NCBI GenBank assembly: GCA_012964275.1
Contig: DTUG01000136.1
Location: forward strand, 1 to 42,048
Source of the DNA: Fidelibacterota bacterium
Lineage (GTDB): Bacteria; Fidelibacterota; Marinisomatia; Marinisomatales; UBA1611
Direction: 5' to 3'
Length of the DNA stretch: 42,048 nucleotides
Part shown: in pieces, positions 21,183 to 38,500 of the stretch
Numbering within the stretch: the first letter of the stretch is position 1
Layout: every line of letters begins with the position of its first letter
The notes under the pieces: generated by a model
Databases searched by the model: none
What the model was told of the DNA's origin: nothing
Seen by the model: only the letters and a program-made list of their open reading frames with translations
Program-made: the position numbers and the translations under genes

Positions 21183-21707
21183 TTAATACAGCATCAAATA
21201 AACCATAACCCCCGTAATAGAAACATATAACCATAAAGGCAGGGTTATTCTTGCAATTGTCCGATGTTGTTTGAGTTGAGAATTCCAACCTCGATAAAGC
21301 GTGAGCATGGCTAACGGAAGAATAACAACTGCAAGTATAATATGTGAAATCAGAATAATAAAATAAATGGTAGTCCAGTCCCCTGTGTAGGTCTTTGGGC
21401 CACTTTTAAACCAATGGTAAATCACATAGCTAATGAGGAAGAGCGCAGATGTCCCAAATGCAGTAAGCATCACATTTTTATGAAATTCCCGTTTCTTTTT
21501 TTTTATTAATAAAAAGCCCCATACAAGTAATATTGCTGTTGTTATATTTAATGTGGCGTTCAATTTAGGTAATAAGGATACATCCAGCACCCCTTCGATC
21601 CCATCCGGCCGTGGGCCTAAAATTAGAAATGCTACCGCCAAGCTCAAGACCGCAGAAACAATGTAAATAATTTTCACGAAGAAGCGATCTTGATCCACGT
21701 TTTTCAA
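21183..21707 (-). CDS. DUF420 membrane protein (commonly linked to heme-copper oxidase biogenesis genes)
   Basis: 174 aa, 4-5 TM, with LPKLNATLNITTAILLVWGFLLIKKKKREFHKNVMLTAF typical of DUF420. 4-nt overlap with ctaB. Confidence 0.65.
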   Translation of the reverse strand: MKNVDQDRFFVKIIYIVSAVLSLAVAFLILGPRPDGIEGVLDVSLLPKLNATLNITTAILLVWGFLLIKKKKREFHKNVMLTAFGTSALFLISYVIYHWFKSGPKTYTGDWTTIYFIILISHIILAVVILPLAMLTLYRGWNSQLKQHRTIARITLPLWLYVSITGVMVYLMLY

Positions 21708-22585
21708 TAATTTAAGTCAACCAAGATTAATACCAGTAAACAAGGTAAATACATTACCGATACCTTTAACAGCAATTTTGCATTATTTATAGAATAATTC
21801 TTAATCAGCGGTAAACTAGCCATTAAATAGGTAATCCCGAATAACACAGCACCCCATAAATAGAGCGAACCCAAAACACCGGTAAAAACCGGTAAGACTG
21901 ATATGGGAATCAATAAAAATGCATGCCAAATAATTTGGCGATTTGTCCTTCTGCCATCATTTTCCATCACAGGCAACATTTTAAATCCCGCTTTCGAATA
22001 ATCATCCTTGCACATTAAGGCAATTGCATAAAAATGGGGGTGCTGCCATAAAAAAAGGATAGCAAATAAAATCCAAGCGTCCAAATTTACATGTCCAGTC
22101 GCAGCGGCCCAGCCTCCCAGCGGTGGTAGTGCCCCAGGCACAGCACCAATAGTCGTATTTAACCAGGTAATCCGTTTTAATGGAGTATATACAAAAATAT
22201 AAAGAAAAGTTGTGAGAAACGCCAAAAAGGCTGTCAACAGATTGGCACCCAATAATAATATGATTAGTCCACATAAAACCTGGATCAGACCAAATGTCAA
22301 GGCAGTATTGGCACCAATGATCCCAGCTGGAATAGGTCGGGACCGTGTTCTTTCCATCAAGATATCAAAATCCCGCTCAATATAATGATTCAATGTACCG
22401 GCACCACCTGATACCATGGCCGCACCGAGCAAGGTCAGAATGAAATGGTAAGCCTGAATGATTCCTGCTCCACCGATATAGTAGCCTAGAGCGGTCGATA
22501 TTAAAATCATTAAGGTAATCTTCGGTTTGGTCAGTTCAACATAAGCCTTAAACTTAGTTTTTGCGGGTTGCGGATGGCGTTTCAT
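21704..22585 (-). CDS. ctaB: Protoheme IX farnesyltransferase (heme O synthase)
   Basis: 293 aa UbiA-family protein: YVELTKPKITLM, NHYIERDFDILMERTRSRPIP, YTPLKR, WQHPHFYAIA. Confidence 0.9.
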   Translation of the reverse strand: MKRHPQPAKTKFKAYVELTKPKITLMILISTALGYYIGGAGIIQAYHFILTLLGAAMVSGGAGTLNHYIERDFDILMERTRSRPIPAGIIGANTALTFGLIQVLCGLIILLLGANLLTAFLAFLTTFLYIFVYTPLKRITWLNTTIGAVPGALPPLGGWAAATGHVNLDAWILFAILFLWQHPHFYAIALMCKDDYSKAGFKMLPVMENDGRRTNRQIIWHAFLLIPISVLPVFTGVLGSLYLWGAVLFGITYLMASLPLIKNYSINNAKLLLKVSVMYLPCLLVLILVDLNY

Positions 22586-22586
22586 T

Positions 22587-23186
22587 TCAAGAATCTAAAT
22601 TTTTTAAAAATAAGTTTAAATGAGCCTGCAGAATAGCAATACTTGCTTTATCGGTACCGTCATAATATTGTCGAATCCGTCCTTTATCATCGATAAGGAC
22701 AAATTTAACTGAATGACCAGCAGGCAGATCATCGGAAAACAACATAAAACCATCCCGGGTTAATTCTTTTACTGATTTTATATCGGAACGAATAAATATC
22801 CAGCGGTCATCATTTACACCATTTGCATCTGCATAAGCAGCTAAAACATCTTCCGTATCAGTATCTGGATCAACAGTGACTGATACAAACTGAACATCTG
22901 GAATAGATCTGTATTGTTCATATAACCTGCTCATATTGGACGCCATTATTGGACATGGACCTGTACAACTTGTAAACATAAAATCCAGCACAGTTATTTT
23001 ATTTCTAAAATTTTCCATTGTAAAGGTGTACCCATCATGAGTTTTAAATTGAAAATCCGGAACAGATTTAATAATCGGTGGAGGTGTTTGATGTGCTTGA
23101 TCAGCTTTATTAATCACCCAGGTTGCACCTATCCCTAAAATCAAAATGAAAAGACCAGCAATATATACCGTATGAATTTTTTTCAT
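22587..23186 (-). CDS. SCO1/SenC family copper chaperone (thioredoxin fold)
   Basis: TM anchor plus FMFTSCTGPCP (CxxxC) and a downstream H (AGHSVKFVLID). Start set to the ATG at 23186 (MKKIHTVY...), which overlaps the ctaA stop as ATGA. Confidence 0.8.
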   Translation of the reverse strand: MKKIHTVYIAGLFILILGIGATWVINKADQAHQTPPPIIKSVPDFQFKTHDGYTFTMENFRNKITVLDFMFTSCTGPCPIMASNMSRLYEQYRSIPDVQFVSVTVDPDTDTEDVLAAYADANGVNDDRWIFIRSDIKSVKELTRDGFMLFSDDLPAGHSVKFVLIDDKGRIRQYYDGTDKASIAILQAHLNLFLKNLDS

Positions 23187-24112
23187 CAGTTCAAGCGCGA
23201 CATTTCCCAGGCTGTATATTGAATCACGCAAAGGCCTAAAATCAAGGACGCGAACCACATGTGGAATAACTGAATTAGAGGTTTCACATCAAAAAATACT
23301 AATGATTCACCTAAGATAATTTGAACAATAATCATTCCCAGCATGGCCTGTGCAGAACCAATGATCAACCTTGACGGATTTAAACTTTCTATGATTAGAA
23401 TTTTTCTTATAAAATATGCTAAACCAACCAGAAAAATACCCAGGATGGTGTGCATGTATTTAAATGGGCCAAGCATCCTTAAAAGAAAGATGCTATTTAC
23501 AAGGGGATTTTGATTCCGAATCATTTCCAGCCCGCCGCGAATCTCAGTGCCTATTATAATTTCGATTAAGACAATTAAACCTGTAGCATATATAAACCAT
23601 TTCAAGCTATTTGGGTAGTCACTTTCAACCTCGGCACTTTTATGATACAGATAGTAAGATTGCAGTGAAGCATAGATAAGAAGCACCACAATCAATAAAG
23701 CTAACAGTAAATGGAGCGTAATTGTAAACGGATTTAACACTGTATCAACCAATACTCCCCCAAGCCACCCCTCTATGATTGTCAGGATAAAAGCTCCAAT
23801 GACTGGAACCATTATTTTAATCTCCTTTCTGTAGCACCGTATGGCCAGATAACACGTGATCGTGATCATGAGTCCGGTTACAGCACCAAATAATCGATTG
23901 CAATATTCGATCCAGGCCAACACAACATTAAACTGATCCTGGAATTCCAGCGGGACCTGATCTAAACTGGTTGGAGGAATCCAGCGATCAAAACATTTTG
24001 GCCAATCAGGACAGCCCATTCCGGCATCGGACACACGGACTAACCCACCGACAAAAATAAGGAGGTAAGTCATCAAAATTGTAAGCACAGAAAATCGAAA
24101 AAAATATTTCAT
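23186..24112 (-). CDS. ctaA: Heme A synthase (COX15/CtaA family)
   Basis: 308 aa, 8 TM, GGLVRVSDAGMGCPDWPKC, and conserved His in TM segments (TLHLLLA, MHTILG). Confidence 0.85.
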   Translation of the reverse strand: MKYFFRFSVLTILMTYLLIFVGGLVRVSDAGMGCPDWPKCFDRWIPPTSLDQVPLEFQDQFNVVLAWIEYCNRLFGAVTGLMITITCYLAIRCYRKEIKIMVPVIGAFILTIIEGWLGGVLVDTVLNPFTITLHLLLALLIVVLLIYASLQSYYLYHKSAEVESDYPNSLKWFIYATGLIVLIEIIIGTEIRGGLEMIRNQNPLVNSIFLLRMLGPFKYMHTILGIFLVGLAYFIRKILIIESLNPSRLIIGSAQAMLGMIIVQIILGESLVFFDVKPLIQLFHMWFASLILGLCVIQYTAWEMSRLN

Positions 24113-24250: not shown

Positions 24251-25567
24251 ATGGCGAAAGCTTTGCACCAGATTGAGCCCGGAACTGCCTGTACGATTAA
24301 AACCACAGGTCAAGGGGGCGAGTTAAAGAAAGTTTTCTATTTTCCTACCAAATATGAAGTGCAATTAAACACCGGCGAAATCCATCATTATACATCACAT
24401 GAAGTCATTTTTGAAGGATTTGAACATCCTGAAGTCAAATTAAAGACCCCTGAAATACCCCATGCTGGAATTGGAGATAAATGGTCTTCATGGTCCCCAT
24501 TTATAGCCCGAAGCGAAATCAAACACCATTTTTCCACGACTAAAGAAATCATGTGGAAAATGATTACAAATCTGGACACATATAATATATGGTTCGTAGG
24601 AATCCAGCGTGCTTTACCAATTCTAAACTCAGACCGCTATGTTCATCAGTTTTCCTTTGACAAGTTTACTCTAGAACCAGGGGCGTTTTTTAAAATTCGT
24701 CCTGCATCTCTGGCACCCTATTTTAAATGCAGAGTTATGACCATTGAGAAAGAGAAAGAATTCGGGTTTGAATTCAGAACCACACCATTTTACAAAGAAT
24801 ATATTTCATTCAAGATTGATGAATCAAAGAAAGGTGTCTGGGTTACGTGCAGAAGAACTTCTAAGGGAATTTTTTCTCTATTATCTCTGTATAAATGGAA
24901 CAGTCGCAAATCAATGATTTTGCAGCTACTATCCAATATTATACCTGAGGTTAACTTTGATAAAGATAAGGATGATTTAAGTACAGATAATGGAACAGCT
25001 TCACAATGGATTGGATTTGCTGCGCGCGAAGATTACATCAATTATGCTGTTAACATGGGGTTGAAAGGGGATATGGATATTATTAATTCTATCTCGGATA
25101 AACCTACCCGCGGCAAAGCAAAAGCAGCTTTGGTTCGTGCCAAACGTACCGGAGAATCTCCGCCAATGCCGGAGAAGCCCAAAGGCGGAGTATCGCCAGC
25201 CGAAGGAAGCACTAAAACCGGTTTAAGCGGTGAACCGCTTATTGCTTTTGTTGTTAACAAAGCTCTAGATGGGGATATGGACCCCCTCAATGCCATAGCA
25301 GAGAAAGTCACCCGCGGCAAAGCAAAAGCACTGCTTGTGAAAATCAAACGGGGTTCAGCAGAACGACCGGCAATGCCTGAACTTCCTTCGCATGATCAAG
25401 AAACTAGTCTTGTAACTCCAGAAGAATCTGAAGAACAGCTTATGGAACGACTTATCGCAAAGGGTCTGGAAGGTGATATGGAAGAGATTAATGCTCTAGA
25501 TAACAAGGCATTACGGGGAAAAATTAAAGCTGCTATCGTCAAAGAAAAACGAGCTCAAAAAAAATGA
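24251..25567 (+). CDS. Hypothetical 438-aa protein: possible SRPBCC/START-like core followed by three ~45-aa basic helical repeats
   Basis: First gene of the Rieske/cyt b operon. C-terminal repeats: GLKGDMDIINSISDKPTRGKAKAALVRAKR / ALDGDMDPLNAIAEKVTRGKAKALLVKIKR / GLEGDMEEINALDNKALRGKIKAAIVKEKR. Confidence 0.6.
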   Translation: MAKALHQIEPGTACTIKTTGQGGELKKVFYFPTKYEVQLNTGEIHHYTSHEVIFEGFEHPEVKLKTPEIPHAGIGDKWSSWSPFIARSEIKHHFSTTKEIMWKMITNLDTYNIWFVGIQRALPILNSDRYVHQFSFDKFTLEPGAFFKIRPASLAPYFKCRVMTIEKEKEFGFEFRTTPFYKEYISFKIDESKKGVWVTCRRTSKGIFSLLSLYKWNSRKSMILQLLSNIIPEVNFDKDKDDLSTDNGTASQWIGFAAREDYINYAVNMGLKGDMDIINSISDKPTRGKAKAALVRAKRTGESPPMPEKPKGGVSPAEGSTKTGLSGEPLIAFVVNKALDGDMDPLNAIAEKVTRGKAKALLVKIKRGSAERPAMPELPSHDQETSLVTPEESEEQLMERLIAKGLEGDMEEINALDNKALRGKIKAAIVKEKRAQKK

Positions 25568-25677
25568 ACATGTCAGACAACAAAATATCAGGAATGACCA
25601 CAACTCAACTGGTTTCAATGATCGCATGTACGATTTTACTCATTATATATATCACTTTAGTTACTTGGGTATTATGA
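25564..25677 (+). CDS. Unannotated 37-aa single-TM micro-protein
   Basis: Manual translation: MNMSDNKISGMTTTQLVSMIACTILLIIYITLVTWVL*. The ATG overlaps the upstream stop (ATGA). Below the ORF-track size cut-off. Confidence 0.45.
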   Translation: MNMSDNKISGMTTTQLVSMIACTILLIIYITLVTWVL

Positions 25678-25680
25678 TCC

Positions 25681-25824
25681 ATGGATTTCGAATGGTTTAC
25701 TTTTTCCTGGCTCATGGAGCACTTGGAATGGGCGGTTGGATTACTTCTCATCGGGATAATAATCCTTTTCTTCTTCCCCATAATGCTTGGCTGGCAATTG
25801 AAACAGAGAGAGAAAGAATTATAA
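25681..25824 (+). CDS. Unannotated 47-aa single-TM micro-protein
   Basis: Manual translation: MDFEWFTFSWLMEHLEWAVGLLLIGIIILFFFPIMLGWQLKQREKEL*. Starts 3 nt after the previous stop. Confidence 0.5.
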   Translation: MDFEWFTFSWLMEHLEWAVGLLLIGIIILFFFPIMLGWQLKQREKEL

Positions 25825-25833
25825 ATAACACAA

Positions 25834-26001
25834 ATGGATGCTCTCCCGCTCATATCAATCCTTGCTCTTATATTTGCCTTGATACTCATGAGTGAAGTAT
25901 TCCGATTGAAAAGAGATCTGCGGAAATTGAAGAAACTTATGAAACACTTGCGGGACGATATGGAACTGCTGAAAAACACAGAAAAAAGAGAGGGTAAATA
26001 G
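25834..26001 (+). CDS. Unannotated 55-aa micro-protein (N-terminal TM + charged amphipathic helix)
   Basis: Manual translation: MDALPLISILALIFALILMSEVFRLKRDLRKLKKLMKHLRDDMELLKNTEKREGK*. Confidence 0.5.
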   Translation: MDALPLISILALIFALILMSEVFRLKRDLRKLKKLMKHLRDDMELLKNTEKREGK

Positions 26002-26066
26002 AGTTTTATTTTTGCCGTCCGGTTTATTATGTCAGTAAGTTTTAGTCTTTAGAATTCCCTGGGAAT

Positions 26067-26957
26067 ATGGTTAACGTGGATAGTAGCAATCAAATATCTG
26101 GCAAGGAATCCAGCAGAATTTATGTTCTCTTTTATTCTTTTTTTTTGATTCCATTCATGATTGCAGTTTTTGGAGCGTTATTCTTTTTACTCTTTCGTTT
26201 TATTACCTTTGAAACAAATAGTGCTGAAGATCTTTTAAACCAGGTTAAGGTTGGATCAGCTTCGAAACGATGGCAGTCAGCTTTTGAATTAGCCAAAATA
26301 TTAAATAACCCAGATCTGGTTCCGTTAAGCAACTCATTCAAAGATCAGATGATCTCGGCATACCAGCGTTCTATCCATGACGATCCTCTGGTCAGGTCAT
26401 ATCTTGCTATGGCTATGGGTGCTACAAGAGATACTACTTATGGATCAACCTTGCTGAATGGCCTTAATGATGATAACCTCGAATCTCAAATAGCTGCGAT
26501 CCAGTCCGTAGGACTAATCGGTTACTCGCCGGCTGTCCCAGAATTGAAGGATATCACGATCAGATCAGAATCTCATAGTGAACGCCTGGCTGCCACAATT
26601 GCTCTGGGAATGATTGGTGATCAGACATCTATCCCGCATTTAACCAGTTTATTAGACGATGAAGAACCCAACATTCGCTGGGACGCAGCAGTCGCTCTCG
26701 CCAAGATGGGCAATAATTCCGGAGTTTCCATCATTGCAAGTCTATTGGATCGAGAATACCTCAACCAATTCAAGGAAGTTGATGAAATTGAGAAAAAACA
26801 AGTCTTGATGGTAGCCATACAGGTATCATCTCTACTTGTAGATCAACGATTCAAATCAAAACTGATTACCCTAGCTGAAACTGATGTGGATCTGAGTATT
26901 CGAGATGCAGCAATTAAAACCCTGGAAAAAAAGTATAGTGCTTCAATAACGTCTTAA
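26067..26957 (+). CDS. Membrane-anchored HEAT/PBS-lyase-type repeat protein
   Basis: N-terminal TM (IYVLFYSFFLIPFMIAVFGALFFLLF) followed by 5-6 HEAT-like repeats: DPLVRSYLAMAMGATRD, ESQIAAIQSVGLIG, ERLAATIALGMIGD, EPNIRWDAAVALAKMGN, DLSIRDAAIKTLEK. Confidence 0.65.
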   Translation: MVNVDSSNQISGKESSRIYVLFYSFFLIPFMIAVFGALFFLLFRFITFETNSAEDLLNQVKVGSASKRWQSAFELAKILNNPDLVPLSNSFKDQMISAYQRSIHDDPLVRSYLAMAMGATRDTTYGSTLLNGLNDDNLESQIAAIQSVGLIGYSPAVPELKDITIRSESHSERLAATIALGMIGDQTSIPHLTSLLDDEEPNIRWDAAVALAKMGNNSGVSIIASLLDREYLNQFKEVDEIEKKQVLMVAIQVSSLLVDQRFKSKLITLAETDVDLSIRDAAIKTLEKKYSASITS

Positions 26958-26958
26958 T

Positions 26959-27516
26959 ATGAGTGAAAATAAACAAGCACCACGTGCTGCGGTTGGTAGT
27001 AGTACAACATCACCAGGGTCCGATAATAATGATATTCGCAGACGTGGGTTTTTCAGATGGCTTGCTTTAGGCTGGCTTGCATTTGCGGCAGCAACTGGCG
27101 GATTTTTCATTGTCATTATACGATTTCTCTATCCGAATGTATTATTCGAGCCTCCTCAAACGTTTAAGATTGGCTTTCCCGATGAATTTTCTCCAAACAG
27201 TGTTGATACGAGATTTAAAAAGAAACATAATGCCTGGGTCGTTCGAGATGACGAATCTATCTTTGCTCTTTCGACCACCTGTACACACCTTGGATGTACA
27301 CCTAACTGGCTTCTAACAGAAAACAAATTTAAATGCCCCTGTCATGGAAGCGGATTTAGAATAACTGGCATTAATTTTGAAGGACCAGCGCCCAGGCCCC
27401 TTGAAAGGTTCAAGATTGGACTATTAGATGACGGACAGATCCTGGTAGATAAAACAAAAAGCTATAAGTGGGAAAAAGGGGAGTGGGAAAATAAAGACTC
27501 ATTCCTAAAGGTATAG
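26959..27516 (+). CDS. Rieske [2Fe-2S] subunit of a cytochrome bc/b6f-type complex (Tat signal/anchor)
   Basis: Twin-arginine IRRRGFFRWLALG plus a TM segment. Cluster boxes CTHLGC and CPCHGSGF. Confidence 0.9.
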   Translation: MSENKQAPRAAVGSSTTSPGSDNNDIRRRGFFRWLALGWLAFAAATGGFFIVIIRFLYPNVLFEPPQTFKIGFPDEFSPNSVDTRFKKKHNAWVVRDDESIFALSTTCTHLGCTPNWLLTENKFKCPCHGSGFRITGINFEGPAPRPLERFKIGLLDDGQILVDKTKSYKWEKGEWENKDSFLKV

Positions 27517-27519
27517 AAT

Positions 27520-28314
27520 TTGGAAAAGCCTGATAATAAGAAACCATTGCTTGAACGAATGGGAGAGTCCCAGGTCTGGAAATCAATTATTCGATCCGGG
27601 GTTCCAAGAACAAGGCGTCAGCGCATGCATGCAATTCTTGGCAGTGTATTCTTGCACCTGCATCCAGCAAGGCTGCCAAAGCATGCGGTTAAAGTCGGTT
27701 ATACATGGTGTATGGGTGGGCTCTCGTTTTTTCTTTTTGTAAATCTGACAATCACTGGGATATTGCTCATGTTTTACTACCGACCGACAGTAGAATATGC
27801 ATTCACCGACATTATCGATCTTGCCGAACAGGTCCCTCTTGGTATAATGCGAGAACTACACCGCTGGACGGCGCATGCCATGGTTCTTATTGTATGGCTT
27901 CATATGGTAAGGGTTTTCATGACTGGGTCATATAAGCCGCCAAGAGAATTTAACTGGGGTGTGGGTGTGATTCTGATGACACTAACCCTGCTCCTATCAT
28001 TTACAGGATATTTGCTTCCCTGGGACCAGTTGGCCATTTGGGCTGTCACAGTTGGATCAAATATGGCTAGGGCAACACCTTTTCTTGGTCATGAGGGGCC
28101 TGGAGCGGCTCTTTTAGCAATTGGTGATATAAATTTGATTCATGTGGGCTCTGATGTGCGCTTCGCACTGCTTGGAGGAAGGTTCGTAGGAGAAGCAACA
28201 CTCCTACGTTTTTATGTGTTACACTGTATTGGAATTCCTTTTATTGCCATGATATTCATGGCAGTCCATTTTTGGCGCATTCGTAAAGATGGTGGAATAT
28301 CGGGGCCATTATAA
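27520..28314 (+). CDS. Cytochrome b6-type subunit (N-terminal four-helix half of cytochrome b)
   Basis: Heme-ligand pairs LHRWTAHAMVLIVWLH and LHCIGIPFIAMIFMAVH. CMGG matches the b6 heme-ci Cys context. Ends ...RKDGGISGPL like cytochrome b6. TTG start. Confidence 0.85.
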   Translation: MEKPDNKKPLLERMGESQVWKSIIRSGVPRTRRQRMHAILGSVFLHLHPARLPKHAVKVGYTWCMGGLSFFLFVNLTITGILLMFYYRPTVEYAFTDIIDLAEQVPLGIMRELHRWTAHAMVLIVWLHMVRVFMTGSYKPPREFNWGVGVILMTLTLLLSFTGYLLPWDQLAIWAVTVGSNMARATPFLGHEGPGAALLAIGDINLIHVGSDVRFALLGGRFVGEATLLRFYVLHCIGIPFIAMIFMAVHFWRIRKDGGISGPL

Positions 28315-28329
28315 AACTTAGAAATTTTT

Positions 28330-29451
28330 ATGAGTTTAGCTGCACTTAAATCTGTAATTGATGCCATTTCTGCGCCAACTATCAGTTTTACAATATTAAC
28401 TGTGGCCTTCCCATTTTTCTTCCCACCAACAGACTGGTTTGAAAAAATCCATCGTAAACTGGGATTTTGGCGTTTATGGACAAAAAAGGGCGGCATAATT
28501 GGATTATTGCTGATTACAGCCTTTTTCGTATTAGGCTATTTTGATAAAAACTTCAATATCACACTAACAAAACCGGACAATTTCCCAATTGTTCTCTTGA
28601 TATACTCCATGTTTTTTTATATCTGGCTTGGAATGTATAAAGCCTATCAGAATGATGAACGATTGGATGCAGGATTAAAACCTAATGAATATAATGACCC
28701 TGATGACAAAGTCCTGGTTTGGCCAGATCTGGTCTATATCGAGTTCATAGCGCTTATCCTATTTCAAGTATTTCTTATCGTTTGGTCCATACTGGTGGCT
28801 GCACCAATAGAAGAACCGGCAAACCCAGCCGCAACGCCAAATCCATCTAAAGCTCCCTGGTATTTCCTGGGTCTGCAGGAAATGCTTGTCTATTTTGATC
28901 CATGGTTGGCGGGTGTCGTTTTTCCAACAATGATCATATTAGGACTAATGGCTATCCCTTATATGGATATTAATAAAAAGGGTGATGGTTACTATACATT
29001 TAAAGAAAGGCGAGTTGGCATTTTCATTTTTATGTACGGTTGGATCGTTCTATGGCTGTTTCTCATAGTTATCGGTACATTTTTCAGAGGACCTAATTGG
29101 AACTTTTTCGGACCTTTTGAATATTGGGATACACATAAGGTCGTAGCCCTAAATAATGTGAATTTATCCGAATTATTTTGGGTTAAGTTATTAGCAAAAG
29201 GACTACCCAGTAATATCCTAATAAGAGAATCTTTAGGTTTTATAGCGGTGTTTGTTTATTTGTTTGTTTTACCAGTAATTCTTATTAAAACAAAACTAAA
29301 AGGCACGTACGAAACTTATGGTCCAACAAGATTTGTAAGCCTAATGATATTTGGTCTGGGGATGCTTGCACTGCCAATTAAAATGTACCTGCGATGGGCA
29401 ATTAATCTGAAATATATTGTTGCAATCCCTGAATGGTTTTTCAATATCTAG
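28330..29451 (+). CDS. Extended subunit-IV-like protein (C-terminal half of cytochrome b) with extra TM helices
   Basis: VWPDLVYIEF ... NPSKAPWYFLGLQEMLVYF aligns with the subunit IV / cyt b PEWY region. At 373 aa it is far longer than the ~160-aa PetD. Confidence 0.75.
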   Translation: MSLAALKSVIDAISAPTISFTILTVAFPFFFPPTDWFEKIHRKLGFWRLWTKKGGIIGLLLITAFFVLGYFDKNFNITLTKPDNFPIVLLIYSMFFYIWLGMYKAYQNDERLDAGLKPNEYNDPDDKVLVWPDLVYIEFIALILFQVFLIVWSILVAAPIEEPANPAATPNPSKAPWYFLGLQEMLVYFDPWLAGVVFPTMIILGLMAIPYMDINKKGDGYYTFKERRVGIFIFMYGWIVLWLFLIVIGTFFRGPNWNFFGPFEYWDTHKVVALNNVNLSELFWVKLLAKGLPSNILIRESLGFIAVFVYLFVLPVILIKTKLKGTYETYGPTRFVSLMIFGLGMLALPIKMYLRWAINLKYIVAIPEWFFNI

Positions 29452-29472
29452 TTTAATTTTCAAGAAACGTAA

Positions 29473-32442
29473 ATGTTTAAAAACGACGAAAGATATTGGG
29501 ATATAAACCAACTAAATAAGTGGTTCGGGATTTCATCTCTGATATTTCTTATTTCTATGGTTTGGGTGTTTATTGATGACAATGATGATGAATTTAAAAT
29601 CTACCAGAAAGAGTTCAGAAAACTGCAGATCGAAATAACCCAAAAAAACCTGGATAAAGAATTAGGCGCTGTAAAAGATAGTAGGGAAAAATTCGAAGAA
29701 AGGCTTGTTGCTACGCAAGAGATTTACAGTTCACATGCTAATGAAGTTGCATCAATCGAAAAAGCGCTAAGCGACCTTCAAGGAAAATTTTATAAAGCAA
29801 ATATGAATTATCAGGGACAAAAAGCAAAAGTAGATGAAATTAAGTTTCTGGTCGAAAGCGAAAATGTTCATGAAAACTCCCACGAAAAGAGTCACCGGGA
29901 CAACTATAATAAAGCACTGGTAAAACTAGACGGATTAAAACTAACAAAAGAAAATTATGAAATAGAAATCAAAGATAATGAAGAAAAATTAAAAGGCTTG
30001 AATAATGAACTAAAAAAAAGCCAGGAAGAACTAGATTTTATACTCCGTGATGTTACCATAGCTGATGGCAAGTTAATATCATTAGATAGGTCGAGAATGA
30101 GTTTTCTAAATAGAATCGGTGATATTGTCAGGGACTTACCAATTCTTGATTTTATGGACCCATACTACAAGGTCAATCAAATCGTCGTAAAGGATGTACA
30201 TTATGATGTGAACTTTACTACCATGCCGGTAGTAGACCGCTGTACAAGCTGCCATCTTGAAATTAGCAATCCTGATAATATTGATGCAGAACAGCCCTTT
30301 ACCACACACCCAGATCTGGATCTTTATCTCACAAGTTCTTCGCCGCATCCATTAGAGTCTTTTGGCTGTACATCGTGCCATGCAGGACGAAGCCGGGGTA
30401 CATCCTTTGTATCTTCCGCACACACACCAAACTCAACAGAGCAAAAACACGATTGGGAAGAAAAACACGATTGGGAAAAAATTCACCACTGGATGCAACC
30501 AATGTTCCCAAAAAGATATACACAGGCAAGCTGTTTCAAATGCCATATGAATACTAGTGATCTGGCTGGTGCAGAAAAATTAAACTTGGGGCTTACATTG
30601 GTGGATAAAGCAGGCTGCAATAGTTGCCATGTTGCTGGTAATTGGCGTTCTTCAGGCAAAACGGGTCCTGATCTCAGGAAAATTAATGAAAAGTTGAAAC
30701 CCGACTGGGTTGCCAAATGGATCAAGAACCCGCGAAGTTTTCGCTATAATACACGTATGCCAAGCATATTTGAGCAAGACAACCAAACAACAGAAAAAAT
30801 AGCCAAACGCAATATTAATGAAATTGCTTCTATAACTCACTATCTCTTCAACAATAAGCACCTTGATAATGGAAAAACAATCAATAAGTATCTGGGCAAT
30901 CCACAAAATGGTGAAAAAATATTTCAAACTGTCGGCTGCATGGGATGCCATATCAGCGAAACCGATGCATCGCTTGCTCCATCACCAACAACATTTTCTA
31001 ATTTGACCAAACTACAAGGGCCGAACCTGGTTGGAATGGGATCGAAGGTATCCGCTGAATGGCTCTATAATTGGCTTAAGAATCCACATGATTATATGGC
31101 TTCTACCCGCATGCCAAACTTGCGGCTTAGTGATCAAGAAGCTAAAGATCTTACTGCTTTCCTGCTGGATAGCAGGATTTATGAATTTGATAAATTAGAA
31201 ACACTAGAGTTGGATACGATTGTCTTAAATGAACTAACTGTGGATTGGCTACGAAAAATGAATCCAGAGAAATTCGCTGTTGCAAAAGCATCAAAAATGT
31301 CAACAAAAGAAAAATTAGCCTTTGTTGGAGAAAAAAGTATTCGACATTATGGCTGTTTTGGTTGCCACAACATTGATGGATTCATGGATGCCAAACCTAT
31401 TGGAACTGAAATTACTTATCAAGGCTCCAAAACTTTAGATAAGTTGGACTTTGGTTTGTTGCATGACATAGAACATACAAATTTCGCTTGGATCGAAAAC
31501 AAGTTGCGTACCCCGCGAATATATGATAGAGGTAAGGAAAGTGATCCACTTGATCTCTTAAAGATGCCTAACTTTTATTTCACTGAAGATGAAATTGAAG
31601 CTATCACAACAGCTATTTTAGCATTTAATACAGATGGGGTCGGCAAAGATCTTCTAGCACATGAAAACCTACCCAAATATAACAAAGATGGTCATCGACT
31701 AGTGAAAAAGTACAATTGTCAGGGGTGTCATCTAATAGAGAATCGCGGCGGACAGTTAGTGGAACAAATTGGGCCTGCTGAATATGGTCCCCCAAACCTA
31801 AATACAGAAGGAAAAAAAGCGAACCCTAACTGGCTTCTTAGCTTTTTCAATAAACCAATAACCATTCGCCCCAACATTCAGGTTAGAATGCCAAGCTTTC
31901 ACCAAATCAACGATAAGGAGTGGGATACTATCATTAAATATTTTCAAGGTATTGATGATGAAAATATCGGTTACAGAGCTGATTATATTGTAAACGAAAA
32001 AAGTACTGAATTTCATGCTGGGGAAAAACTCCATGAATTAGGAGCTTGTAATAACTGCCACTTCTACGGGACAGAATTTCCAATACAAACCGCATCAACA
32101 TGGGCAGCAAACTTAGCCATGACAAAGGTGCGCCTTAATCCAGATTGGGTAGTAGAATGGCTAAGGGAACCTCAGGATATTATGCCCGGCACCAAAATGC
32201 CGGCACCCTACATACCCACTTCAGATATTCTGGATGTGGATGATGCAGAAGCTACCTGGGGCAACAATCTTGTAAAATTGAGCGGTAATCAGGATGCTAT
32301 GCTGGAAGGATTGCGGGATTATTTGTGGACCATTGATGGGAAAATAGATATCTCTCAGGAGGTGAAGGATTATTTCGAAGAGAACGGATATGATTTTTCC
32401 GATGCAGACGATGAAGATGAATGGGATGAGGAAGATTGGTAA
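29473..32442 (+). CDS. Membrane-anchored octaheme c-type cytochrome with N-terminal coiled coil and acidic C-terminal tail
   Basis: Eight CxxCH motifs: CTSCH x2, CFKCH, CNSCH, CMGCH, CFGCH, CQGCH, CNNCH. The last five are each followed by (R/K)MP, as in class-I cytochrome c. N-terminal TM (WFGISSLIFLISMVWVFI) plus ~170 aa of K/E-rich heptad-like sequence. Ends DADDEDEWDEEDW. Confidence 0.85.
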   Translation: MFKNDERYWDINQLNKWFGISSLIFLISMVWVFIDDNDDEFKIYQKEFRKLQIEITQKNLDKELGAVKDSREKFEERLVATQEIYSSHANEVASIEKALSDLQGKFYKANMNYQGQKAKVDEIKFLVESENVHENSHEKSHRDNYNKALVKLDGLKLTKENYEIEIKDNEEKLKGLNNELKKSQEELDFILRDVTIADGKLISLDRSRMSFLNRIGDIVRDLPILDFMDPYYKVNQIVVKDVHYDVNFTTMPVVDRCTSCHLEISNPDNIDAEQPFTTHPDLDLYLTSSSPHPLESFGCTSCHAGRSRGTSFVSSAHTPNSTEQKHDWEEKHDWEKIHHWMQPMFPKRYTQASCFKCHMNTSDLAGAEKLNLGLTLVDKAGCNSCHVAGNWRSSGKTGPDLRKINEKLKPDWVAKWIKNPRSFRYNTRMPSIFEQDNQTTEKIAKRNINEIASITHYLFNNKHLDNGKTINKYLGNPQNGEKIFQTVGCMGCHISETDASLAPSPTTFSNLTKLQGPNLVGMGSKVSAEWLYNWLKNPHDYMASTRMPNLRLSDQEAKDLTAFLLDSRIYEFDKLETLELDTIVLNELTVDWLRKMNPEKFAVAKASKMSTKEKLAFVGEKSIRHYGCFGCHNIDGFMDAKPIGTEITYQGSKTLDKLDFGLLHDIEHTNFAWIENKLRTPRIYDRGKESDPLDLLKMPNFYFTEDEIEAITTAILAFNTDGVGKDLLAHENLPKYNKDGHRLVKKYNCQGCHLIENRGGQLVEQIGPAEYGPPNLNTEGKKANPNWLLSFFNKPITIRPNIQVRMPSFHQINDKEWDTIIKYFQGIDDENIGYRADYIVNEKSTEFHAGEKLHELGACNNCHFYGTEFPIQTASTWAANLAMTKVRLNPDWVVEWLREPQDIMPGTKMPAPYIPTSDILDVDDAEATWGNNLVKLSGNQDAMLEGLRDYLWTIDGKIDISQEVKDYFEENGYDFSDADDEDEWDEEDW
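30445..30480 (+). repeat. In-frame 18-nt tandem duplication (KHDWEE/KHDWEK) inside the octaheme cytochrome gene
   Basis: aaacacgattgggaagaa followed by aaacacgattgggaaaaa; 17/18 identical. Confidence 0.8.
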
Positions 32443-32471
32443 AAGCACCTGCATATTTATTTATAAAAAAA

Positions 32472-32498
32472 GCCCCTACAATTGTAGGGGCTTTTTTT
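32472..32498. terminator. Rho-independent (bidirectional) terminator after the Rieske/cyt b operon
   Basis: Stem GCCCCTAC, loop aatt, stem GTAGGGGC, followed by T7 and preceded by A7. Lies 30 nt after the stop at 32442. Confidence 0.85.
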
Positions 32499-32507
32499 GG
32501 AACAGAG

Positions 32508-34319: not shown

Positions 34320-34337
34320 AAAACCACTAGTGGTTTT
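34320..34337. promoter_or_regulatory. Perfect 18-bp palindrome, candidate operator in a divergent promoter region
   Basis: AAAACCACTAGTGGTTTT reads identically on both strands. Lies between the cupredoxin gene (-) and the membrane-protein/ferredoxin/cox genes (+). Confidence 0.5.
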
Positions 34338-34848
34338 TGGTCTTAATTTTCATCAACAAACAAGGTTGCAAATGTGGTTATTCATGATCATTTGTTATAT
34401 CATGATGGCCAGTAATTTTCTCAACATTTTACTGACCGGATTGATGGGGTATTTTAAATTTACTGTTTGGGGTGCAACCCATGCCCGGTTCGCAATTTTT
34501 ACTATCCTAGTATTTATTCTAACAGAAACTTTAGTGATGTTCTTTTTTATAGCTACTGGAAAAAGTATAAAACAGATGATACAGGACGGCCGCGGGGATA
34601 CCAAACATTGGCAGCGAGTTAAAAAGGTCAAGAAATGGGTTTTTCCGCAGATCATTCTTACAATAATACTGGTTGGAGCTGTATTTATCCATGGTGGAGT
34701 TGTTGACAACAACCTAGCCCTTTCCTGGCTTCACGGTCCCTTATTTCTACTTGCATTTTTCCAGCACATGTGGTCTCTAGTTATAAAGAACCGCTCATTC
34801 AGAGAACAAGTCAATATAGCCGCAGAAATATCTAAAGAATTGGAATAG
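34330..34848 (+). CDS. Hypothetical 4-TM membrane protein with His residues in or near TM segments
   Basis: 172-aa track ORF with a GTG start inside the palindrome. The ATG at 34372 (MWLFMIICY...) is a more likely start. No family recognised. Confidence 0.5.
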   Translation: MVFGLNFHQQTRLQMWLFMIICYIMMASNFLNILLTGLMGYFKFTVWGATHARFAIFTILVFILTETLVMFFFIATGKSIKQMIQDGRGDTKHWQRVKKVKKWVFPQIILTIILVGAVFIHGGVVDNNLALSWLHGPLFLLAFFQHMWSLVIKNRSFREQVNIAAEISKELE

Positions 34849-35415: not shown

Positions 35416-37128
35416 CTGAGCTCTGATTCACACCACCAGGAAGGTTTCATACGAAAGTATATTTTTTCAATTGACCATAAGATAATTGCTATTCAGTATG
35501 GTGTCACTTCCCTGCTGTTTCTTTTTTTTGGTTTCTCCCTGATGATGGTCATGCGCTGGCAGTTGGCCTACCCGGAGACCGTAATTCCATTTCTTGGATA
35601 TCTGTTTGGCGAAGCAGGTATTATGCTTCCGGAGCAGTATAATTCCCTAGGAGCTATGCATGGCACTATTATGATTTTTCTTGGGGTAGTTCCGCTTGCA
35701 GTTGGCGCCTTTGGGAATTATGTGGTTCCACTCCAGATCGGAGCACCAGATATGGCTTTCCCCAAACTGAATGCCGCCAGCTACTGGAGTTATTTTGTTG
35801 GCGGAGTCATCATGGTGGCCAGTTTTTTCATGCCCGAAGGCGCTGCCCGATCCGGGTGGACATCTTACCCACCTTTATCTATTTTTGAATCTGGACAAAC
35901 TATGTGGCTCATTGGCATGGTGTTTTTGATTACATCTTCCTTGCTAGGTTCAATGAATTTCATTACAACAATCATACAACTTCGCGCACCGGGGCTTACC
36001 TGGATGAGACTACCTATTTTCGTATGGGCTCAATTTGTATCATCTTTTTTATTGGTATTGGCATTCCCCCCGCTCGAAGCAGCAGCAATATTGCAATTAA
36101 TGGACCGTATCGCAAGTACAAGTTTCTTTATGCCCAGCGGTTTGGTCTACGCTGGAGCGCCCGTTGATGTATCGGGATATGGCTCACCATTGCTCTGGCA
36201 ACATCTCTTCTGGTTCCTGGCTCATCCCGAAGTATATGTTTTGATTTTACCTGCCATGGGTATTGTGGGCGAAATATTAGCCAATAACACGCGAAAGCCA
36301 ATCTGGGGATATAAATCTATTGTTTTTGCCCTAGTTATCCTTGGATTTCTCTCTTTTATTGTTTGGGCACACCATATGTTCTTGACTGGCATGGGTCAGG
36401 TTATGAGCAGTTTTTTCCAGACCACTACAATGATCATTTCTATTCCATCCGTCATTATTTTGACAGCTTATTTCATGTCCCTGTGGGGCGGCTCAATACG
36501 GTTTAATACCCCCATGCTGTTTGCACTGGCATTTCTGCCAATGTTTGGAATTGGCGGCCTTACCGGCCTGCCGCTAGGATTAGCAGCCGCAGATATCTAT
36601 CTTCATGACACCTATTATGTGATTGGCCATTTTCATTATGTTGTTGCACCAGGTACCCTTTTTGCGTTATTTGCAGGCATCTACTATTGGTTTCCCAAGA
36701 TCACCGGTAGAAAAATGAATGAGGCATTAGGCAAGCTTCATTTCTGGCCATCATTAATTTTCATGAACGGTGTTTTTATGCCCATGTTTATTCAAGGACT
36801 GGCGGGAGTGTCAAGAAGGTTATATGATGGCGGAGAGATGTATGCCCACGCTTCAGATGTACTGCAATGGAATGAATTTATGTCAATTTCTGCATTTTGC
36901 CTTGGTGCAGCCCAGATTCCATTTATTATTAATTTCTTCATGTCCATATTCGTTGGTGAAAAAGCGGATAGAAATCCATGGAAGTCCACCACGGTTGAAT
37001 GGGCAGCTCCATCTCCGCCTATAGGACACGGAAATTTTGACACTAAAATAATCGTTCACCGTGAAGCCTATGAATACGGTGTGCCAGACGCGAAAAATGA
37101 TTTCACTCCCCAAACGGAAGAAACCTGA
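35416..37128 (+). CDS. ctaD: Cytochrome c oxidase subunit I (A-type heme-copper oxidase); non-canonical start
   Basis: Motifs: GAPDMAFPKLN, WFLAHPEVYVLILP, WAHHMF, HDTYYVIGHFHYV. The conserved helix-I region (RKYIFSIDHKIIAIQYG...) is in frame upstream of the first ATG (35542), and no ATG/GTG/TTG follows the in-frame stop at 35389. Start placed at CTG 35416, with GGAG 7 nt upstream; ATA 35413 is an alternative. Confidence 0.85.
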   Translation: MSSDSHHQEGFIRKYIFSIDHKIIAIQYGVTSLLFLFFGFSLMMVMRWQLAYPETVIPFLGYLFGEAGIMLPEQYNSLGAMHGTIMIFLGVVPLAVGAFGNYVVPLQIGAPDMAFPKLNAASYWSYFVGGVIMVASFFMPEGAARSGWTSYPPLSIFESGQTMWLIGMVFLITSSLLGSMNFITTIIQLRAPGLTWMRLPIFVWAQFVSSFLLVLAFPPLEAAAILQLMDRIASTSFFMPSGLVYAGAPVDVSGYGSPLLWQHLFWFLAHPEVYVLILPAMGIVGEILANNTRKPIWGYKSIVFALVILGFLSFIVWAHHMFLTGMGQVMSSFFQTTTMIISIPSVIILTAYFMSLWGGSIRFNTPMLFALAFLPMFGIGGLTGLPLGLAAADIYLHDTYYVIGHFHYVVAPGTLFALFAGIYYWFPKITGRKMNEALGKLHFWPSLIFMNGVFMPMFIQGLAGVSRRLYDGGEMYAHASDVLQWNEFMSISAFCLGAAQIPFIINFFMSIFVGEKADRNPWKSTTVEWAAPSPPIGHGNFDTKIIVHREAYEYGVPDAKNDFTPQTEET

Positions 37129-37139
37129 GGAAAGATATT

Positions 37140-37739
37140 TTGGAAATCCCTTATATAGTTGACGAGCGTGAAGATACTGGTTTAATCAATTCCAAACTAG
37201 GGATCTGGATTTTTCTGGCATCGGAAGTGATGCTTTTTGGCGGGCTATTTTCCGCCTATGTTTTCCTGAGAATGGCTGCCCCTCCGGGAGATTTTGCCCA
37301 CTGGGGCGCCGAGCTGAATGTACCCCTGGCCACCCTTAATACCCTGGTGTTGATTACATCTAGTGTCACCATGGTTATGTCATGGGCATCCCTAAAACTC
37401 AAGGATTTTGAAAAATATAAAATATATATGGCGCTAACATTATTATGCGCAGCTATTTTCCTTGTGGTAAAATACTTTGAGTATACCGCCAAGTTTCACC
37501 ATGATATTTTTCCATCGTCCAGTACCTTCATGGCAATCTATTTCACGCTTACGGGGCTTCATGGTCTGCATATTATTGGTGGTATGATTGTGATAACATA
37601 TTTATGGATGCCCTTTGGAAATAAAATATGGCATACCAATCCTGAACATTTTACGAACCGCGTTGAGGTAATAGGATTATACTGGCACTTTGTGGATCTC
37701 GTTTGGATCTTCCTGTTCCCTGTACTCTACCTGATTTAG
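37140..37739 (+). CDS. ctaE: Cytochrome c oxidase subunit III
   Basis: 199 aa, 5 TM: GIWIFLASEVMLFGGLFSAY, YFTLTGLHGLHIIGG, GLYWHFVDLVWIFLFPVLYL. TTG start after GAGGAAAG. Confidence 0.85.
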   Translation: MEIPYIVDEREDTGLINSKLGIWIFLASEVMLFGGLFSAYVFLRMAAPPGDFAHWGAELNVPLATLNTLVLITSSVTMVMSWASLKLKDFEKYKIYMALTLLCAAIFLVVKYFEYTAKFHHDIFPSSSTFMAIYFTLTGLHGLHIIGGMIVITYLWMPFGNKIWHTNPEHFTNRVEVIGLYWHFVDLVWIFLFPVLYLI

Positions 37740-37748
37740 GATAAAATA

Positions 37749-38051
37749 ATGAGTGACCACGATACAGTATCAATCCAAGAACATATTCGAGTCTATTTGA
37801 CGGTATTTGGTGCACTAGCTGTTTTAACTGTTACTACAGTATTAGCTTCGTATCTGGACATCAGTACATCAGAAGCAATATTCCTAGCGTTAGTTATTGC
37901 ATCGGTGAAAGGATCCCTCGTTGCAGGCTACTTCATGCACCTGATCTCGGAAAAAGCTACAATCACATGGATACTGATGATGACAGCGTTATTTTTTTTC
38001 GTACTGATGTTTCTGCCATTAATGTCTATAACAGATCAAGTCAATATCTAA
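37749..38051 (+). CDS. Prokaryotic cytochrome c oxidase subunit IV family protein
   Basis: 100 aa, 3 TM. HIRVYLTVFGALAVLTVTTV ... VIASVKGSLVAGYFMHL matches the COX4_pro pattern. Confidence 0.7.
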   Translation: MSDHDTVSIQEHIRVYLTVFGALAVLTVTTVLASYLDISTSEAIFLALVIASVKGSLVAGYFMHLISEKATITWILMMTALFFFVLMFLPLMSITDQVNI

Positions 38052-38249
38052 ATGATATCACTTAAAACATTTCATTTTTTTTTCATTGCTGTTTCTACCA
38101 TATTGACCTGCTGGTACGGAGTATTTGAAATGACTACTCCTACGAATCCAGGTTTTATTTCATTACTGCTTGCCGGGTGTTCTTTTGCAGCAACAGCAGG
38201 TTTATGCATTTATGGTCTATCAATTCTTAAAAAATTCAAGAATCTATAA
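38052..38249 (+). CDS. Hypothetical 65-aa two-TM protein within the oxidase operon
   Basis: The ATG directly abuts the preceding TAA. Two hydrophobic helices. Confidence 0.5.
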   Translation: MISLKTFHFFFIAVSTILTCWYGVFEMTTPTNPGFISLLLAGCSFAATAGLCIYGLSILKKFKNL

Positions 38250-38254
38250 TAACT

Positions 38255-38488
38255 ATGAATAAAATCATTTCAATCTTCACTTTTACGTTAATTATGTTTT
38301 TTATTGCGGAACCAATACAGGCTTGTGCAACCTGCTATGGTGCTACCGACGCAGCAGCAACTGAGGGGCTGAATTGGGCTATTATTTCATTGCTGGGAAC
38401 AACCGGTGGTGTCTTAACCGGAATTATTATAGCCATCATTTCCATAGTGAAAAAGGCCGAAAAACACGGTAAAATAATTGAAAAATAA
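38255..38488 (+). CDS. Hypothetical 77-aa protein: signal peptide, short CxxC-containing periplasmic segment, TM anchor
   Basis: MNKIISIFTFTLIMFFIAEPIQA / CATCYGATDAAATEGLNW / AIISLLGTTGGVLTGIIIAIISIV / KKAEKHGKIIEK. Confidence 0.5.
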   Translation: MNKIISIFTFTLIMFFIAEPIQACATCYGATDAAATEGLNWAIISLLGTTGGVLTGIIIAIISIVKKAEKHGKIIEK

Positions 38489-38500
38489 AAAAGGATAATT

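Follow-up and report, generated by a model that had tools for sequence, protein, structure and literature searches.

The operon analysed here lies at 24251-32442 on the plus strand of a 42,048-nucleotide (nt) stretch of DNA from a Fidelibacterota bacterium (contig DTUG01000136.1 of assembly GCA_012964275.1); we refer to the whole stretch as the window. Its nine genes, g1 to g9, include those for a Rieske protein, a cytochrome b6-type protein, an enlarged subunit IV and an octahaem cytochrome c. This core falls into a class of complexes that is known but uncharacterised, the APWY/octahaem class. We consider it probable that the operon encodes a b6-type Rieske/cytochrome b quinol oxidoreductase acting as complex III of aerobic SAR406, with electrons leaving through the octahaem cytochrome, and probably a cupredoxin, for the adjacent aa3-type oxidase.

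In the dark ocean SAR406/Marinimicrobia rank with the most abundant of the uncultured bacteria, and the operon appears to be the SAR406 link from the quinone pool to oxygen. The core is widespread, with at least 600 matching stretches in a genome scan and more than 2000 subunit protein clusters at 50% identity, yet none of the complexes in this class has been purified or solved. Apparently new are a HEAT-repeat protein that partners the core across phyla, a conserved linkage to a cupredoxin and an oxidase, three micro-proteins and a putative SRPBCC-repeat protein specific to SAR406, and an acidic-tryptophan tail shared by the octahaem cytochrome and COX2. We found no mention of the HEAT protein, the cupredoxin, the micro-proteins or the SRPBCC protein in the open-access text of the literature on these complexes. 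The co-occurrence of the HEAT gene across phyla, and of the cupredoxin gene in several of them, leads to concrete hypotheses on the mechanism of the class, and carriers in groups with cultured members (Schlesneria, Bacteriovoracaceae and Vicinamibacteria) offer a route to cryogenic electron microscopy and genetics. The system bears on why a complex III needs eight haems and on how haem cn is inserted outside cyanobacteria.

The Rieske/cytochrome b core and its octahaem cytochrome

Nine co-directional open reading frames (ORFs) make up the operon (Table 1). A sequence-only reading of the same DNA had counted ten, although its own gene list also sums to nine; a tenth gene was sought in 24251-32442 and none was found, the remaining ORFs overlapping g1-g9, mostly on the opposite strand. 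The same reading was right about the tight spacing, which from g1 to g9 is -4, 3, 9, 65, 1, 3, 15 and 21 nt, and about a strong terminator after the operon, which proves to be a 16-bp hairpin followed by a T-run. This hairpin folds at -23.4 kcal/mol (z = -5.95), and 0 of 200 shuffled sequences fold as well. A consensus terminator scan missed it, probably since the A and T runs pair into the stem.

The sequence-only reading had also named a promoter or terminator that separates the upstream genes transcriptionally as grounds against its inference, and no such break was found. Promoter-like sites are not enriched inside the operon (24 found against 29 expected), and terminator-like sites within its coding sequence are weak. 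The 65-nt gap between g4 and g5 holds no hairpin. In the related locus L001, g4 adjoins the HEAT gene (6614/6615), so the gap is not a conserved break. No Shine-Dalgarno sequence precedes any of g1-g9; the GC content is about 39%, and a protein with a type IX secretion system tail is encoded near the operon. With homologues that carry the name Candidatus Marinimicrobia, these features assign the DNA to a SAR406/Marinimicrobia genome.

The wider distribution was surveyed by a profile search of one genome per species. All of the matching stretches were confirmed as relatives by tblastn, and the locus tallies given below refer to evaluable loci among the best 80 of the at least 600. These 80 belong to Marinimicrobia, Acidobacteriota, Planctomycetota, Omnitrophota, Verrucomicrobiota and Bdellovibrionota, and include the cultured Schlesneria sp. 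T3-172; the octahaem proteins of Nitrospina and Kuenenia are not among them. The order Rieske, b6, subunit IV, octahaem cytochrome is kept across all of these groups. The same gene order as in the window recurs in relatives whose octahaem proteins are only 52-59% identical, and the order g5-g9 in at least six phyla; the arrangement is thus far beyond chance. Large homologue searches with g9, g1 and the HEAT profile gave no cross-phylum view, their matches being saturated by near-identical marine Marinimicrobia; that view was supplied by a representative-protein search with g8 together with the genome scan.

The domain calls made earlier from the sequence (HEAT, Rieske, cytochrome b, subunit IV and eight CxxCH motifs in g9) all hold. 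The Rieske protein, g6, has the twin-arginine signal/anchor RRRGFF and, read from the translation, the cluster boxes CTHLGC and CPCHGSGF, that is, the CxH...CxxH boxes of a 2Fe-2S protein together with a membrane anchor. It is 72-75% identical to its relatives and matches NCBIfam PetC at 1.4e-19, under the cut-off of that model. In the ten Brink scheme, as quoted by Kao and Hunte (PMC4122944), S-F in Rieske box II marks the 'Mid+' class of about 260 mV; box II of g6 has S-F, which places it in that class.

Among solved structures, g7 is closest to cytochrome b6 chains (1q90_B, 3.2e-40). The His pairs of helices B and D are both present, the alignment with 1q90_B spanning HRW...H and H...H. In addition, TWCMGG of g7 aligns with FYCIGG of b6 (CxGG), and its Cys corresponds to Cys35 of b6, the covalent ligand of haem cn. 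Identity to relatives is 89%.

Separate genes for b6 and subunit IV, together with the haem-cn Cys, give the split arrangement of b6f complexes. A b6f complex in the strict sense has a three-helix subunit IV with PEWY, whereas g8 carries APWY and, by hydropathy, about 8 predicted transmembrane (TM) helices, the subunit IV core being preceded by 2-3 additional helices and followed by 2. Likeness to b6f subunit IV is limited to residues 112-244 (1vf5_B, 2.1e-08). The search of 1.84 billion representative proteins yielded a g8 family of 2178 clusters at 50% identity (E <= 1e-3), many of which cover the extra C-terminal helices. PNP(A/S)KAPW does not vary across 25 family members; it is followed by Y, with F instead in 3 of these sequences.

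The last gene, g9, encodes an N-terminal TM anchor, an antiparallel coiled-coil hairpin (residues about 39-204), a multihaem segment and class-I cytochrome c domains, and ends in the acidic tail ...DEDEWDEEDW. Its CxxCH motifs lie at residues 257, 299, 354, 382, 489, 628, 749 and 859. Because acidic residues come after the single N-terminal TM helix, the remainder of the protein is placed in the periplasm. In the AlphaFold2 (AF2) model, only the hairpin and some of the class-I domains are predicted with confidence. In 53/64 evaluable loci, subunit IV is followed by an ORF with one TM segment and exactly eight CxxCH motifs. The cytochrome families matched by g9 are solely of the class-I, c3, c7 and FixO types, and not cytochrome f (PetA), which bears out the proposal that an octahaem protein takes the position of cytochrome f/c1.

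The earlier assignment to a variant Rieske/cytochrome b complex is supported, the complex being of b6 type. The accompanying claim that its composition is undescribed has to be given up for the core, which fits both the published APWY clade (PMC4122944) and the operon of Nitrospina, Kuenenia and Methylomirabilis (PMC3578206; PMC12954380). Kao and Hunte described the APWY clade of cytochrome b in diverse phyla, with no member characterised, and connected it with Rieske proteins of Mid+ to high potential and, as a possibility, with operation in reverse (PMC4122944). Lücker et al. reported for Nitrospina gracilis an operon of Rieske, split b6/subunit IV and an 'atypical octaheme cytochrome c', with the same operon structure in Kuenenia and M. 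oxyfera (PMC3578206). Modelling of the Kuenenia complex gave a b6-like cytochrome, a five-helix subunit IV and hexa-/octahaem subunits that replace cytochrome f, the large multihaem subunit having long helices that wrap the complex (PMC12954380); these wrapping helices resemble the g9 hairpin. Dibrova et al. placed such complexes in the diverse subfamily G (PMC5600118).

The operon thus shares with the systems of Nitrospina gracilis, Ca. Kuenenia stuttgartiensis (Kustd1480-1485, Kuste4569-4574) and Ca. Methylomirabilis oxyfera the Rieske protein, the four-helix b6 with CxGG, the enlarged APWY subunit IV and, judging from published descriptions, a large membrane-anchored hexa-/octahaem cytochrome with long helices in place of c1/f. 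By those descriptions it differs from these systems in the HEAT gene, the three micro-ORFs and the SRPBCC protein upstream, which the papers do not mention, and from Kuenenia in having no NAD(P) oxidoreductase or HAO-like subunit and about 8 rather than 5 predicted TM helices in subunit IV.

Other known systems are more distant. Cyanobacterial and chloroplast b6f share the split b6 and subunit IV, the haem-cn Cys and small single-helix accessory proteins, and provide the closest solved structures of g7 and g8. Here, in contrast, there is no cytochrome f, the micro-proteins are not homologous to PetG/L/M/N, subunit IV is longer by about five helices and carries APWY rather than PEWY as its Qo motif, and the setting is a respiratory one, beside an aa3-type oxidase. 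The actinobacterial bcc-aa3 system (QcrABC with CtaCDEF) similarly clusters with oxidase genes, and its multihaem c subunit connects complex III with the oxidase so that no soluble cytochrome c is required. However, QcrC is dihaem, the cytochrome b is fused and lacks haem cn, and there is no cupredoxin or HEAT protein; NCBIfam QcrA/B/C scores in our operon are far under the cut-offs. Finally, the best-scoring NCBIfam models for g7 and g8 are ExtP and ExtQ of the Geobacter ExtH-S selenite/tellurite cluster, a related b6/subunit IV lineage. The scores stay below the equivalog cut-offs (264.9 bits against 290 for g7 and 63.2 against 150 for g8), and operon composition and context are unlike.

Table 1. 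Genes and other features of the window (aa, amino acids; values are E-values of Pfam matches)
Feature	Position	Strand	Remarks
g1, cytoplasmic, 438 aa	24251..25567	+	no TM segment; no Pfam/NCBIfam family
g2, single-TM micro-protein, 37 aa	25564..25677	+	conserved C-terminus ...LIYITLVTWVL
g3, single-TM micro-protein, 47 aa	25681..25824	+	FEWxTxSWLxxxLxWAVGxL...ILFFFP; best conserved of g2-g4
g4, single-TM micro-protein, 55 aa	25834..26001	+	highly charged C-terminal helix, probably cytoplasmic
g5, TM-anchored PBS-lyase-type HEAT-repeat protein, 296 aa	26067..26957	+	HEAT_2 9.5e-21, HEAT_PBS 1.1e-13
g6, Rieske [2Fe-2S] subunit, 185 aa	26959..27516	+	Rieske 3.7e-11
g7, four-helix cytochrome b6-type subunit, 264 aa	27520..28314	+	TTG start; Cytochrome_B 1.4e-40
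g8, extended subunit IV, 373 aa	28330..29451	+	Cytochrom_B_C 2.7e-06; Qo motif APWY
g9, octahaem cytochrome c, 989 aa	29473..32442	+	eight CxxCH; Cytochrom_C 1.4e-20, Cytochrome_CBB3, FixO
Intrinsic terminator, bidirectional	32464..32499		closes operon; also serves convergent SCO1/CusF gene
CtaA, SCO1, CtaB, DUF420 (oxidase biogenesis)	21183..24112	-	divergent; Pfam
CusF-like + SCO1/SenC fusion	32616-33476	-	convergent, shares terminator; kept in close Marinimicrobia L001-L009
Secreted type-1 copper cupredoxin + CarboxypepD_reg Ig-like domain, 235 aa	33526..34233	-	ligands HN..H, CDVHPWM
COX1, COX3, COX4, COX2, A-family haem-copper oxidase	35542..39343	+	Pfam

A HEAT-repeat protein upstream of the Rieske gene

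A gene of the g5 family, found with a family hidden Markov model (HMM), lies directly upstream of the Rieske gene on the same strand in 46/66 evaluable loci from six labelled phyla. It is present in 8/8 loci in Marinimicrobia, 18/19 in Acidobacteriota, 4/4 in Omnitrophota, 2/2 in Verrucomicrobiota, 4/5 in Bdellovibrionota and 7/24 in Planctomycetota, and beyond the close Marinimicrobia clade the operon begins at this gene. From this synteny across phyla we infer that g5 most likely serves this class of complexes as a dedicated subunit or assembly factor.

The charges of g5, with K/R just before the TM helix and acidic residues after it, mildly favour a predicted N-in orientation that would put the HEAT domain in the periplasm. 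The soluble domain, acidic and nearly free of Cys, mildly favours the same location. Its closest natural solved relative is CpcE (5n3u, 1.3e-18).

This relationship suggests another role for g5, that of a maturation factor rather than a structural subunit, either a CpcE/F-like lyase forming the haem-cn thioether or a chaperone loading the octahaem protein. The natural members of the PBS-lyase HEAT family attach tetrapyrroles to Cys, g7 retains the CxGG Cys, and haem-cn insertion outside cyanobacteria 'remains a mystery' according to Dibrova et al. (PMC5600118). We nevertheless find such a role quite improbable. The charge pattern, by favouring a periplasmic HEAT domain, argues against a lyase for haem cn, which is on the n-side. 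The lyase equivalog scores are far under the cut-offs (32 bits against 330 for CpcE, 34 against 300 for NblB), so that only the generic HEAT_PBS repeat is common to g5 and these proteins. Most Planctomycetota loci have the same CxGG-type core without the HEAT gene. To our knowledge Firmicutes have no g5-like HEAT gene. They are, however, reported to make haem cn (PMC5600118). On topology and distribution, then, the haem-cn lyase was down-weighted as a candidate function, and the dedicated subunit or assembly factor is retained as the preferred reading.

The HEAT-less Planctomycetota loci show a further peculiarity. Their Rieske ORF is 378-398 aa long, with an N-terminal extension of about 200 residues that starts with a conserved ...DILAK(I/V)RA... 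(L045 7516-8652; L040 7232-8377; L051 7397-8593; L072 7528-8676; L079 7637-8821). The extension may substitute for the HEAT protein.

Genes g1 to g4 of the close Marinimicrobia

The sequence-only reading had treated the five genes upstream of the Rieske gene as one set and named their synteny with Rieske/cytochrome b in relatives as a check. The result is split: it stands for the HEAT gene across phyla and fails for the rest, since g2-g4 occur in a close Marinimicrobia subclade only and g1 is narrower still. The upstream half of the operon is therefore not one unit. Iterated HMMs for g1-g4, run over 15,431 ORFs from 85 loci, match only L001-L009, with g1 present only in the window, L001-L007 and L009. 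Upstream of the HEAT gene in 20 other loci there are unrelated genes and no conserved small TM ORFs.

Each of g2-g4 encodes one hydrophobic helix by hydropathy, as had been claimed. In relatives they keep the same order and place, and second codon positions diverge least and third positions most, a pattern indicating that the three are coding and under purifying selection. Protein g2 is 53-63% identical at the amino acid level to its counterparts at the same position in five relatives. For g3, with 45-76% identity, divergence is 0.06-0.19 at position 2 against 0.62-0.72 at position 3 (for example 0.06 against 0.64); its acidic N-terminus and basic C-terminus suggest an N-out/C-in orientation. 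Protein g4 (38-52% identity, likewise with a coding-type substitution pattern) has six K/R straight after the TM segment.

None of g2-g4 matches a Pfam family even at E <= 5, PetG, PetL, PetM and PetN included. Homology to PetG/L/M/N or to another family was accordingly rejected. Given their translational coupling and purifying selection, the three are best read as private, lineage-specific peripheral single-helix subunits, which would be analogous and not homologous to PetG/L/M/N.

The AF2 model of g1 (mean predicted local distance difference test, pLDDT, 66), compared by Foldseek, suggests an SH3-like barrel (residues about 13-54) followed by a putative domain of SRPBCC/START fold (about 74-230); three basic helical repeats come after these, in agreement with the triple-repeat protein noted before. 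The repeats follow the consensus ...GLxGDMDxxN...K..RGKAKAxxVKxKR and are joined by Pro-rich linkers; they occupy 25020-25567 of the window. We take the RGKAKAxxVKxKR helix to resemble the KAAVEAAIARAKARK repeats of E. coli RsxC/RnfC. The best Foldseek matches are PYR1/PYL and MLL2253 SRPBCC proteins (probability 1.0, E 1.6e-05, target TM-score 0.48-0.73), in a model with pLDDT < 50 at residues 115-139, 144-146, 150-157 and 165-168 and with no sequence-family match. A homologue search returned 673 proteins; no Pfam domain occurs among the 120 listed, and the few named ones are Marinimicrobia. Homologues are 428-506 aa long, and those aligned have three repeats (about 432-438 aa) or four (about 500-506 aa), for example P0124, P0145 and P0188.

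The role of g1 is the least certain of the operon. As our weakest inference, it could be an n-side accessory protein with an SRPBCC pocket binding a hydrophobic ligand, possibly quinone or lipid as in Coq10. The predicted fold at about 74-230 resembles that of Coq10/SRPBCC (START-fold) proteins, whereas g1 has no sequence-family match to them and adds the N-terminal barrel and the three basic repeats; the quinone link would hold by analogy.

A different account would take g1-g4 out of the bc complex altogether, as a lineage-specific insertion between ctaA and the bc operon that serves haem A/oxidase biogenesis, or, for g1, as a ligand-sensing regulator of the divergent operons. The restriction of g1-g4 to the close Marinimicrobia subclade speaks for it, since the core works elsewhere without them, and so does the locus L008. 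There (5721-7473), g2-, g3- and g4-like micro-ORFs come directly after a co-directional ctaA and are followed by the HEAT gene, with no g1, so the micro-proteins could belong to haem A/oxidase biogenesis as much as to the bc complex. Moreover, g1 stands at a divergent promoter region and combines a predicted receptor-type SRPBCC fold, with PYR/PYL as best matches, and basic repeats that could bind nucleic acid. The gene layout, on the other hand, is that of co-translated subunits and not of a regulator: the g1 stop overlaps the g2 start by 4 nt, gaps of 3 and 9 nt separate g2, g3 and g4, and in L001 no gap is left between g4 and the HEAT gene, with no terminator or enriched promoter signal between g1-g4 and g5. 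Small single-helix subunits are also routine in b6f and other bc complexes. We thus think an insertion or regulator somewhat unlikely and keep g2-g4 as private subunits. The upstream genes are coupled translationally to the complex and, in line with the earlier statement, have no known role in any bc complex.

The oxidase island and the proposed path of electrons

In the window the operon is flanked by oxidase genes on both sides. The divergent layout of CtaA, SCO1, CtaB and DUF420 is the same in L001-L006 and L009 and partial in L007. Downstream follow the convergent SCO1-CusF gene, a 235-aa secreted protein, a small membrane protein, a ferredoxin, COX1, COX3, COX4 and COX2. The whole island is conserved in Marinimicrobia in which the octahaem protein is just 52-59% identical. 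The SCO1-CusF fusion is presumably a copper chaperone for CuA or the cupredoxin.

The secreted protein is annotated only as 'carboxypeptidase regulatory-like'. Its copper ligands H123, C161, H164 and M167 are invariant in 22 homologues, and a family profile matches the blue copper protein 5fc9 (9.6e-06) and amicyanin (2.1e-05); the Pfam Copper-bind match is sub-threshold. A homologue is found in 37/57 evaluable loci, mostly directly after the octahaem gene (e.g. L045 15242-16147, L050 14475-15293) and often in 2-3 tandem copies in Planctomycetota. COX2/COX1 often follow the cupredoxin gene. This neighbourhood makes the cupredoxin a probable electron shuttle.

A second link is found at the protein ends. 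The C-termini of g9 (32395-32439) and COX2 (39296-39340) have the same acidic tail ...(D/E)nW(G)(D/E)nW-COOH, DEDEWDEEDW in the former and DDEDDWGDDEDW in the latter. Among 6157 ORFs of at least 60 aa in the window and the 85 loci, 20 end in this way, all of them g9 or COX2 homologues in Marinimicrobia loci. Beyond the window these loci are L001, L004, L006, L008 and L010-L013, representing shallow and deep clades (L006 and L013 are unlabelled). The match points to a docking or tethering partner shared by both tails. A basic cupredoxin was considered as the common binder and rejected: the isoelectric point ranges from 5.9 to 9.7 among Marinimicrobia and is not consistent.

The sequences hold the parts of a quinol oxidoreductase, namely a Rieske protein exported by the twin-arginine route, a b6 in which four His ligands are present as well as the haem-cn Cys, a subunit IV with the Qo loop and a membrane-anchored periplasmic octahaem cytochrome. 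The cofactor-binding motifs of g6-g9 can be read directly, whereas quinol oxidoreductase activity and a Q cycle would follow from the bc1/b6f paradigm. By that paradigm, quinol would be oxidised at the APWY Qo site. The first electron would go through the Rieske cluster to the octahaem chain, and the second by way of the b haems and haem cn to the n-side Qn site, where quinone would be reduced, so that a Q cycle would generate proton-motive force. The conserved neighbourhood suggests that the octahaem cytochrome would then pass electrons to the type-1 copper cupredoxin, straight to CuA of the A-type oxidase next to it, or to both.

Alternatively, the complex could feed mainly partners other than the oxidase, the octahaem wire leading to N-oxide or sulphur reductases, extracellular acceptors or other donors, or it could run in reverse, from a high-potential donor to quinone. 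This reverse role is the one proposed for APWY-clade complexes in Geobacter and nitrite oxidisers; Kao and Hunte tie APWY to it (PMC4122944), and Nitrospina requires reverse electron flow (PMC3578206). Eight haems are far beyond the need of one hop, g7 is near the ExtP model of the Geobacter selenite/tellurite-reduction cluster (265 bits against the cut-off of 290), and COX1 lies within 10 kb in only 16/47 evaluable loci. In Marinimicrobia, however, the operon sits within an oxidase island, with CtaA/CtaB/SCO1 on one side and SCO1-CusF, the cupredoxin and COX1-4 on the other, and no other reductase is encoded nearby. The C-terminal tail common to the octahaem cytochrome and COX2 is unique to these two, and the association of cupredoxin and oxidase recurs in Planctomycetota, Acidobacteriota and Omnitrophota. 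We therefore judge partners other than the oxidase, or reverse operation, to be improbable for this operon, and favour a complex III that delivers electrons to the oxidase.

Several points weigh against this assignment and what we build on it. Forward Q-cycle operation would be an extrapolation, as no member of the class has been purified, and Kao and Hunte argue that APWY complexes may run in reverse (PMC4122944). Oxidase adjacency is not universal, as the COX1 count indicates, and no cupredoxin was found in the Bdellovibrionota or Verrucomicrobiota loci. The structure model of g9 is poor (mean pLDDT 52). The HEAT gene is missing from most Planctomycetota loci, which means that it is not essential for the core, and the membrane side of its HEAT domain is read from a charge pattern that favours the periplasm mildly. 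The deeper Marinimicrobia loci L010-L013 and L030 have g5-g9 and none of g1-g4, and L008 has the micro-ORFs behind ctaA without g1.

A more far-reaching reading, which we put forward tentatively and consider rather unlikely as a whole, would join all these elements. HEAT anchor, Rieske, b6, 8-TM subunit IV, octahaem cytochrome, dedicated cupredoxin and A-type oxidase would form an unrecognised complex III-IV unit that spans phyla, in which a periplasmic HEAT subunit docks the partners. SAR406 would add three micro-subunits, an n-side SRPBCC subunit binding quinone or lipid, and the matching g9/COX2 tails, which would tether donor and acceptor to a common partner in a hard-wired supercomplex.

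Some further genes accompany the module. A small 2x[4Fe-4S] ferredoxin (window 35072-35395, plus strand) recurs beside it in several phyla (L034 7219-7665; L027 ~7297; L048 ~7058; L052 ~7099; upstream in L014 and L029), and some loci have it immediately before the HEAT gene; in Marinimicrobia it is accompanied by a 172-aa membrane protein (window 34330-34848, plus strand). On the other side of the operon, a 1565-aa protein (16451-21148, plus strand) carries an AMP-binding domain resembling acyl-CoA synthetases at its N-terminus and a GNAT acetyltransferase domain at its C-terminus, with about 750 residues without an assigned domain between them, and is kept beside the respiratory island in L001-L003 and L005. 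Finally, a single tRNA (39420-39503, minus strand) is the sole Rfam match in the window.

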